In this document: positions 54,289 to 55,611 of the stretch, piece after piece
Numbering within the stretch: the first letter of the stretch is position 1
Layout of the letters: the number at the start of each line of letters is the position of its first letter
Virus record (IMG/VR): IMGVR_UViG_2913820460_000006
Location: 1 to 64,000 of that record
Origin: a virus
Lineage: Duplodnaviria > Caudoviricetes
Length of the DNA stretch: 64,000 nucleotides
Reading direction: 5' to 3' (one strand)
Position numbers and translations under genes: made by a program
The notes under the pieces: model-generated
What the model saw: only the letters and a program-made list of their open reading frames with translations
What the model was told of the DNA's origin: nothing
Database searches by the model: none

Positions 54289-55611
54289 TTATTGATTATA
54301 AGTTTCTTGAATAGCTTGGAATATCTCATACATTACTTGTGGGACAATCGCATTGCCATATGCCTTTATCGATTCCTGCCGCCACTTTGAAAAGGCAATA
54401 CCGTCCAATCTGGTGGAAATCCCATCATCTCGGCTACAAACAGGGGATTGAGTTGGGAAGTTTTTCCACCGTTCTGCGAATGATGCTCTCCTAACATTAC
54501 CGGCAGGTTGCACAGAGCATCCGTCCTCATTTTCCCATTTTTTCTTTTCAATGCTTGTGGGGAAACGGAGGGTTGATAGTCCCTCGCTGCTGGAGTAGGG
54601 AGCATCCCATTCACCGCCATTGCTGTCAAAGCTGTGCCCATTTGACTGTTCGGATTGTATTTCTTGCTGTACTTGTCCGCTTCCCGGGCATTGGGAGTAG
54701 GAAGCAACCGAACCATTCTCGCAAGTCCTACGCTTCCGTTCTGTCCGTTCTGATTGATTCTCCTCGGAGTCCCGTTTCTGGTCGTAACAAATTGGTCGTT
54801 CTTTCCAATTATCGCTCCGGTTGTTGCATCGCTCGCCATCGGAGTGGGAAGAAGCCCGAACGCAGCCCCTGACGAAAGGTTGTTGAGTTTCGTACCCGTT
54901 CTGTCTTTCGTTCTCGCAGCAGCTTTCATGGGGTGTTCCACCACTTCCACGGCACGTGGTGTCGGAAGCAGTCCTACCGGATAGAATGTTGTCTTCCCAT
55001 TTTCGTTGCATACCTTTAACCCCTGCGTCTGCACGGTGGGCAATAAAGAAGACACGGTCTCTTCTGTGCGGCGCTCCGACGGCACAAGCCGGAATAACAA
55101 CCGGTTGGACGAAATATCCTTCACGTTCAAGGTCGTTACACACTGTTTCGACAACGTATTCCTGCCGATGCAATATTCTTTTTCGGTCAACCTCTCCGAA
55201 CAGAGATTCTTCACGTCCCAACGCAGTTTCACTGCCGGGTTGTACCATTGAGAGGATTCCAGCAACGTTTTCACCAACAACCCAATCGGGCTGAATCTCC
55301 CGTATCGCTCGTAGCATTTCCGGCCAGAGGTAGCGGTCATCTTCCGCTCCCTTTCGCTGTCCGGCGCAAGAAAAAGGCTGGCAGGGAAAACCTCCGGTGA
55401 GGACATTGATTTTTCCACGCCACTCTGTAAAATTTGTTTTCGTGATGTCTTCATAACTTTTGCTGTTTGGGAACCAATAATCAAGTATTTTTCTCCCGAA
55501 CGGGTTTATTTCACAATGGAACATATTTTTCCAGCCCATTTCCTCGGCAGCTATTTCCGGACCACCGATGCCGCTGAACAAACTACCATGGGTAAACTTA
55601 TTCTTTTCCAT
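54289..55611 (-). CDS. C5 cytosine DNA methyltransferase, alpha (catalytic) chain with motifs I-VIII and X
   Basis: SLFSGIGG, GGFPCQPFS, GENV, GAPHRRDRVFF, KAYGNAIVP; no motif IX in this frame. Confidence 0.9.
   Translation of the reverse strand: MEKNKFTHGSLFSGIGGPEIAAEEMGWKNMFHCEINPFGRKILDYWFPNSKSYEDITKTNFTEWRGKINVLTGGFPCQPFSCAGQRKGAEDDRYLWPEMLRAIREIQPDWVVGENVAGILSMVQPGSETALGREESLFGEVDRKRILHRQEYVVETVCNDLEREGYFVQPVVIPACAVGAPHRRDRVFFIAHRADAGVKGMQRKWEDNILSGRTASDTTCRGSGGTPHESCCENERQNGYETQQPFVRGCVRASSHSDGERCNNRSDNWKERPICYDQKRDSEENQSERTERKRRTCENGSVASYSQCPGSGQVQQEIQSEQSNGHSFDSNGGEWDAPYSSSEGLSTLRFPTSIEKKKWENEDGCSVQPAGNVRRASFAERWKNFPTQSPVCSRDDGISTRLDGIAFSKWRQESIKAYGNAIVPQVMYEIFQAIQETYNQ
54366..55484 (-). 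CDS. Nested beta chain of the C5 methyltransferase (+1 frame): five LLPTP modules and motif IX; start uncertain (55484, 55454 or 55406)
   Basis: 372 open codons fully inside the alpha gene; ends LNPLFVAEMMGFPPDWT. Confidence 0.8.
   Translation of the reverse strand: MIIGSQTAKVMKTSRKQILQSGVEKSMSSPEVFPASLFLAPDSERERKMTATSGRKCYERYGRFSPIGLLVKTLLESSQWYNPAVKLRWDVKNLCSERLTEKEYCIGRNTLSKQCVTTLNVKDISSNRLLFRLVPSERRTEETVSSLLPTVQTQGLKVCNENGKTTFYPVGLLPTPRAVEVVEHPMKAAARTKDRTGTKLNNLSSGAAFGLLPTPMASDATTGAIIGKNDQFVTTRNGTPRRINQNGQNGSVGLARMVRLLPTPNAREADKYSKKYNPNSQMGTALTAMAVNGMLPTPAARDYQPSVSPQALKRKNGKMRTDALCNLPVMLGEHHSQNGGKTSQLNPLFVAEMMGFPPDWTVLPFQSGGRNR

Follow-up and report, generated by a model that had tools for sequence, protein, structure and literature searches.

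A C5-cytosine methyltransferase gene of a Bacteroides-type prophage that probably encodes a second chain in a nested +1 reading frame

Can a cytosine methyltransferase gene whose main reading frame lacks motif IX be completed by a second protein encoded inside that frame? The question is raised by a gene at positions 54289-55611 (minus strand) of a 64,000-nucleotide (nt) stretch of viral DNA (Duplodnaviria; Caudoviricetes), here called the window, which forms positions 1 to 64,000 of the 82.8-kb provirus record IMGVR_UViG_2913820460_000006 of IMG/VR. The original prediction, made from the letters of the window alone, was a two-chain C5-cytosine methyltransferase resembling M.EcoHK31I, and the comparisons given below support it: both frames are open in 78 of 78 complete viral loci, the inner frame is conserved over the linker of the outer one, and change that is synonymous in the outer frame is suppressed. 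We put at roughly 0.8 the probability that the locus encodes a heterodimeric C5-cytosine DNA methyltransferase, read from two nested frames of one messenger RNA. The two frames, alpha and beta, and their parts are the following.

54289..55611, minus strand: alpha open reading frame (ORF), 440 amino acids (aa), ATG start; C5-cytosine methyltransferase large (catalytic) domain, long linker and motif X helix.
55561..55578, minus strand: alpha motif I, FSGIGG, aa 12-17; binding of S-adenosylmethionine (AdoMet).
55369..55386, minus strand: alpha motif IV, PCQPFS, aa 76-81; catalytic cysteine, columns invariant in alignment A2.
55264..55272, minus strand: alpha motif VI, ENV, aa 114-116.
55054..55068, minus strand: alpha motif VIII, HRRDR, aa 182-186.
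54469..55023, minus strand: alpha linker, aa 197-381; without confident predicted fold, poorly conserved, always open.
54334..54357, minus strand: alpha motif X, GNAIVPQV, aa 419-426; downstream of the beta stop codon.
54366..55454, minus strand: beta ORF in the +1 frame, 362 aa from the ATG at 55454; stop codon 54366-54368.
54366..55484, minus strand: longer form of the beta ORF, TTG start at 55484, 372 aa; wholly within alpha, +1 frame.
55047..55454, minus strand: beta N-terminal region, aa 1-136, including SGRKC and LLVKTLLESSQW; overlies alpha motifs IV-VIII.
54453..55046, minus strand: beta variable region, aa 137-334; five "LPTP" cassettes starting at aa 137, 162, 201, 250 and 284, architecture A-H-F-B-D.
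54405..54452, minus strand: beta motif IX, LNPLFVAEMMGFPPDW; M343, M344, G345 and P347 invariant.

Alpha belongs to the C5-cytosine methyltransferases by its family profiles, matching PF00145 (E=1.7e-40, best stretch aa 8-122) and, with 114.1 bits against a cut-off of 100.65, TIGR00675 over aa 10-434. All the motifs assigned to the 440-aa frame (I, IV, VI, VIII and X) were located in it, no recognisable motif was found between VIII and X, and the full set (I, IV, VI, VIII, IX, X) is present only when both frames are used. In the AlphaFold2 model, aa 1-196 form alternating strands and helices, as expected of the catalytic domain, aa 197-421 show no confident fold (predicted local distance difference test, pLDDT, 21-42 per ten-residue block), and a C-terminal helix at aa 422-439 directly continues motif X. 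Hydrophobic residues make up 14.6% of the linker. The description of alpha's variable region as a junk-like linker without motif IX is borne out by its low identity among relatives (0.337) and by the model.

The ORF list and the position of the motif agree that the +1 frame stays open for 372 codons inside alpha and ends in motif IX; from stop to stop, the open stretch measures 379 codons. The proposed double-coding region of about 1.1 kb amounts to 1119 nt if counted from the TTG and to 1089 nt from the ATG at 55454, with both frames conserved, and GC content climbs to about 0.52 over it. The most likely start of beta is the ATG at 55454, giving a product of 362 aa, because residue 11 of the TTG-initiated ORF is the first residue in many homologues. 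This ATG is preceded by an A-rich sequence, and 362-aa cluster relatives of beta (at least 90% identical) are called in NCBI-sourced, JGI and ENA records; unlike them, the window's own 372-aa form is absent from the records.

The identity of the motif in beta can be tied to the canonical motif IX through a plasmid of Candidatus Megaera polyxenophila. In its methyltransferase, which PF00145 matches end to end, motif X is immediately preceded by an in-frame KDERLNPDWVEWLMGYPISWT, and this segment aligns with beta 331-351. Beta matches phrog_1008, "DNA methyltransferase" (E=2.7e-29); the ESM Atlas yielded only unnamed "hypothetical protein" clusters. Motif IX does lie in beta, as had been predicted, but it is not beta's sole contribution, since beta also carries the conserved variable region.

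The nested layout is not peculiar to the window. In a viral sample of 80 IMG/VR loci and three GenBank phages, both ends of alpha, N- and C-terminal, fall within a single open frame, and the +1 frame is open for beta. Both frames are open in every one of the 78 loci with a complete gene, where alpha ranges from 321 to 544 aa and beta from 209 to 476 open codons (length correlation 0.91), and the longest open run in the third frame is 33-56 codons. Alpha is kept open through 130-330 unconserved codons in every locus. Among bacteria, taking one genome per species gave 272 relatives, of which 80 were examined (Bacteroides, Prevotella/Segatella, Sphingobacterium, Mucilaginibacter, Pedobacter, Ignavibacterium, Chlorobiota and others). 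A strict motif test with the standard code found 54 of these 80 nested and 11 more only if TGA was read as Trp; most of the 12 loci classed as "other" proved nested on inspection. A tblastn search with beta found the same frame in Bacteroides, Porphyromonas, Lacticaseibacillus and 48 Paenibacillus phage records. The similarity in the beta frame extends from Bacteroides to Paenibacillus phages (9e-14, about 93% of beta), nesting is also kept in phages of Paenibacillus and Porphyromonas and in a Bacillus plasmid, and the two-frame layout is the rule in lineages down to 28% beta identity. Homologues with an interrupted +1 frame, which had been named as grounds for giving up the prediction, were looked for and not found, except for one lineage with a single CAG-to-TAG change.

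Inside the window, 21 further stretches run for 250 codons or more without a stop, and in none of them are more than 127 +1 codons open, against 379 at this locus; the +2 frame at the locus is open for only 38 codons. None of 5000 synonymous-codon shuffles of alpha reached 379 open +1 codons (maximum 378, mean 179), a test that is weak by construction because beta itself shapes alpha's amino-acid sequence. The frame on which selection acts was then traced region by region. Amino-acid identities and the codon positions at which variation peaks were as follows.

Motifs IV-VIII: identity 0.642 in the beta frame and 0.770 in the alpha frame; variation peaks at alpha codon position 3.
Linker: identity 0.497 in the beta frame and 0.337 in the alpha frame (same columns); variation peaks at beta codon position 3.
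Motif IX: identity 0.728 in the beta frame and 0.614 in the alpha frame; variation peaks at beta codon position 3.

Six diverged lineages were compared for alpha-synonymous differences, which stood at 0.579 in the alpha-only ends (95% bootstrap interval 0.52-0.64) but at only 0.393 over motifs IV-VIII and 0.110 over motif IX, with 0 of 5000 column permutations reaching the observed difference; the lineages are few and their pairs not independent, so this is supportive and not a formal ratio of nonsynonymous to synonymous change (dN/dS). Together, the identities per frame, the codon-position peaks and the synonymous drops indicate that constraint falls on beta within the linker and within motif IX and on alpha at both ends of the gene, and that over motifs IV-VIII both frames constrain the sequence. 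Between motifs VIII and IX, the alpha linker appears unconserved and merely kept open, and it is the beta frame that is evidently under purifying selection there. On these comparisons the nesting is not chance, because both frames stay open in relatives, selection is frame-specific and alpha-synonymous change is suppressed.

The same data bear on the possibility that only alpha functions, the +1 frame being untranslated and open through composition or history. Such a reading would fit the lack of any Pfam or NCBIfam family match for beta, its lack of a confident fold when modelled alone, the few alleles that interrupt it and the 179 open +1 codons that shuffled alpha sequences already average. 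However, it is hard to reconcile with variation that peaks at the third beta codon position in the linker and motif IX, where beta-frame identity exceeds that of alpha, or with beta-frame similarity spanning Bacteroides to Paenibacillus phages. Alpha alone would also be left without motif IX and without any conserved recognition region, and in one relative (L087, described below) motif X is found only in the beta frame. We regard an enzyme of alpha only as very improbable.

Another explanation is a decayed or mis-sequenced single-chain gene, either a pseudogene in which two frameshifts compensate each other or an artefact of assembly. Frameshifted variants are indeed common in metagenome protein sets, which hold many 414-aa alpha-to-beta chimeras, one of them on 24 contigs. 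Against this stand the exact alpha protein, present on at least 1000 contigs from NCBI, JGI, ENA and Logan, and the two-frame layout, kept in lineages as distant as 28% beta identity. The beta family comprises 4126 representative clusters at E<=0.001, and among the best 146 of these representatives motif IX alone occurs in 92 and all motifs in one chain in none; nor does any of the best 150 have them all in a single frame. A word-based search of longer proteins for fused single-chain relatives, which is weak evidence, returned three weak matches, one of them an intein-bearing methyltransferase and none a clean single-frame enzyme. Decay or error is scarcely credible as the origin of the layout.

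One relative of 661 aa (P0315, ENA) has an intein (Hint and Intein_splicing domains) ahead of a PF00145 stretch at aa 415-535. Protein databases also contain dozens of alpha-to-beta and beta-to-alpha chimeras with scattered junctions (P0002-P0121 and others, e.g., P0304 with 414 aa on 24 contigs); at 90% these fall into clusters of their own, a possible trap for homology searches. The chimeras were considered as real biology and rejected: we take them to be mostly indel alleles or errors, with at most tens of contigs per chimera listed against at least 1000 for intact alpha. They remain long ORFs after single-base indels because both frames are open.

A single chain could also be made by programmed ribosomal frameshifting, with a +1 shift into beta after motif VIII and a -1 shift back after motif IX. 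Read over frames 0, +1 and 0, the motifs follow exactly the order of a single-chain enzyme; in L087 one shift would suffice, and natural one-indel alpha/beta chimeras are present in protein databases. At the window locus, however, two shifts would be needed. The interval from motif IX to the beta stop has no conserved slippery heptamer; the sole one to recur is found within motif IX of some lineages, and the window lacks it. Frameshifting would leave unexplained why alpha stays open through its long unconserved stretch in every locus and why beta is open, with a conserved ATG, for about 140 codons upstream of motif VIII. Moreover, M.EcoHK31I functions as two separately expressed chains, and in the Paenibacillus phage Jacopo the Shine-Dalgarno-like sequence GGGAGGTG stands 10-12 nt upstream of the beta ATG. 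Ribosomal frameshifting is, in our view, unlikely.

The two-chain enzyme favoured here would work as follows. Alpha would supply the large domain, which binds AdoMet and carries out catalysis (motifs I-VIII), followed by a tether of about 185-200 residues without confident predicted fold and by the motif X helix, with which the large domain is complete. Beta, probably translated by independent initiation at the internal ATG 55454 in the +1 frame, would supply what in a single-chain enzyme is the interval between motifs VIII and X, namely the variable or target-recognition region with its five LPTP cassettes, and motif IX. The two chains, both of them presumably needed, would associate on DNA into an active enzyme, as is known for fragments of other C5-methyltransferases. 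The predicted enzyme would methylate cytosine at C5 in DNA, presumably that of the phage or prophage, and so protect it against host restriction.

Several observations weigh against this proposal. The beta profile had no match to PDB sequences at E<=10, and the AlphaFold2 model of beta alone (104-sequence alignment) was poor, with a mean pLDDT of 55.5 and a predicted template modelling score (pTM) of 0.23; because of this, the assignment of beta as the small domain stands on position and motifs, not on fold. The conservation of the beta N-terminus is probably in part a by-product of alpha, because alpha is the more conserved frame over motifs IV-VIII (0.770 against 0.642). Finally, the gene can evidently be lost, since one lineage has a TAG inside beta and frameshifted alleles circulate.

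The lineage with the TAG comprises three metagenome contigs (L032, L034, L053) that read MVTY*DF in beta where relatives have MVTYQDF; the same CAG-to-TAG base change turns Pro into Leu in alpha. It may be either a beta-null allele or a recoding of TAG as Gln, and the short flanks of the three contigs held no gene using TAG as stop.

How the enzyme is divided between the frames varies among relatives, as listed here.

Window: alpha with motifs I-VIII, linker and X; beta with variable region and IX.
L087:560-1778 (also L088 and L089; three contigs from three samples): alpha of 175 aa that ends right after motif VIII; beta of 344 aa in +1, overlapping alpha by 344 nt, with cassettes, IX and X (the M.AquI division).
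L086:1254-2276, Candidatus Megaera polyxenophila plasmid: main frame with motifs I-VIII, IX and X; nested +1 ORF of 177 aa with LPTP cassettes only.
Bacillus thuringiensis plasmid: alpha of 246 aa, beta of 161 aa.

In L087 a complete enzyme cannot be read without the +1 frame, and by its motifs the Megaera plasmid represents a third way of dividing the enzyme. Frame junctions may drift across the family, which may be explained by the tolerance of C5-methyltransferases to splitting (PMC3404938).

One locus (L060, about 2450-2890) carries an HNH_3 endonuclease with a helix-turn-helix (Pfam 1.2e-14) inserted in frame in alpha, between GNDGLP and VDNLT. The insertion splits motif IX of beta (MMGFP / LMWTT); a dual-coding gene may here have taken up a homing endonuclease or an intron-like element.

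A further group of loci, on contigs of Bacteroides and related genomes, shows a TGA pattern (L100-L102, L106, L109, L131, L143-L146, L165, L167, L157, L160-L162, L164). In the six whose codons were read (L101, L106, L143, L144, L162, L167), in-frame TGA in alpha falls mostly at conserved Trp (AAE*MGW, DF.Q*RG, FS.*RQ) with few in the unconserved linker, and the true stop of alpha is TAA; the remaining listed loci have the same stop-delimited pattern. The 11 loci nested only under the TGA=Trp reading have beta stops of TAG or TAA, never TGA. To judge from these codons, the TGA-bearing loci look like prophages recoded to TGA=Trp in hosts with the standard code.

The variable region of beta is itself modular. 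Cutting beta at each xPTP motif gave 21 module families of about 25-51 aa, arranged in 32 architectures among 58 distinct beta proteins, with no tandem DNA repeats of note beneath the cassettes. From one relative to another the cassettes are reshuffled in different combinations. One cassette only is present in the smallest relatives, including that of the Paenibacillus phage Jacopo, which suggests that the extra cassettes are additive units. A bolder and still doubtful extension is that beta is an array of swappable target-recognition cassettes, each LPTP module adding or changing a methylation specificity, in a family whose frame junctions drift; one specificity per cassette, and with it multispecificity, would be part of that picture. 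If so, phages could re-tool their anti-restriction methylation by swapping cassettes, each of which would also have to be free of stops in the alpha frame, and the EcoHK31I-like, AquI-like and "IX in alpha" layouts would reflect drift within one family. To our knowledge, few conserved dual-coding arrangements in phage genomes would then match this one in length and spread, and it would hold a modular specificity code to decipher.

The closest isolate to the window provirus is Bacteroides phage BKO1-TP3. The neighbours of the methyltransferase gene are a PAPS-reductase-domain protein, a Lin1244_N/DUF7833 protein and small ORFs, and the gene sits in the replication-type module of a Bacteroides-type prophage, in a neighbourhood much like that of BKO1-TP3.

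That standard annotation would miss beta, as had been expected, holds in part. It is true of BKO1-TP3 (L001), where only alpha is annotated, but not of many Paenibacillus phage records, where both overlapping coding sequences are annotated as DNA methyltransferase, nor of the NCBI-sourced 362-aa relatives of beta. In Porphyromonas phage phage018a_AFR5B1 (L003), only beta is annotated, as a hypothetical protein, and the 328-aa alpha ORF is unannotated. Gene callers that forbid nested genes on the same strand report one frame, and with it a methyltransferase without motif IX or a "hypothetical protein", and single-base indels create long chimeric ORFs that pollute protein databases. Conserved dual coding over about 1.1 kb is unusually long and would constrain the evolution of the recognition cassettes. 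From the architecture of these cassettes one could predict the host restriction systems that a gut phage escapes. Naturally split methyltransferases already serve as platforms for targeted methylation (PMC2836561).

Among known enzymes, the nearest in layout is M.EcoHK31I, the methyltransferase of a restriction-modification system; the window gene, unlike it, sits in a prophage replication module. In M.EcoHK31I from E. coli HK31, which recognises YGGCCR (Lee, Kam and Shaw 1995), the whole of beta is read from a different frame within alpha, both chains are required and internal start codons of the beta frame are used (PMC2836561, PMC3404938); motifs I-VIII and X lie in alpha and IX in beta, with the target-recognition domain "predicted" in alpha (PMC3404938). 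Both papers confirm the alpha/beta arrangement on which the original prediction drew. The window gene shares the complete nesting in another frame and the motif split, as far as described layouts, not sequences, can be compared, and differs in that its conserved variable region with the LPTP cassettes lies in beta, alpha having only unconserved linker there. A search of plasmids gave no E. coli record among the matches.

M.AquI, which recognises CYCGRG, is a two-subunit C5-methyltransferase split within the variable region (PMC3404938). The relative L087 is divided in just this way, with motifs I-VIII in alpha and the variable region, IX and X in beta. In the window, unlike M.AquI, the second chain does not carry IX and X together: motif X belongs to alpha and lies past the stop codon of beta, and because it stays there the alpha frame has to run through the entire length of beta. 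The M.AquI subunits, unlike those of the window, are not described as fully nested.

The multispecific C5-methyltransferases of Bacillus phages (SPR, phi3T and rho11s type) are single chains whose variable region holds recognition modules in tandem, each about 40-50 aa long and open to gain or loss. By description only, the window gene is like them in being phage-borne with tandem cassettes, and unlike them in being divided between two frames. The pair gp56/gp57 of Paenibacillus larvae phage Jacopo is homologous to alpha and beta, with the same nesting (tblastn 9e-14 for beta) and a DNA methyltransferase annotation on each of the two genes, and is much shorter than that of the window, with an alpha of 351 aa, a beta of 234 aa and one cassette. 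Paenibacillus phage genome papers list both genes and leave the overlap undiscussed, and our search of the literature on the wider nested or split family found nothing beyond M.EcoHK31I and M.AquI. Overall, the nested layout is one already known from M.EcoHK31I, and by the present comparison of loci and records it is widespread and unevenly annotated.

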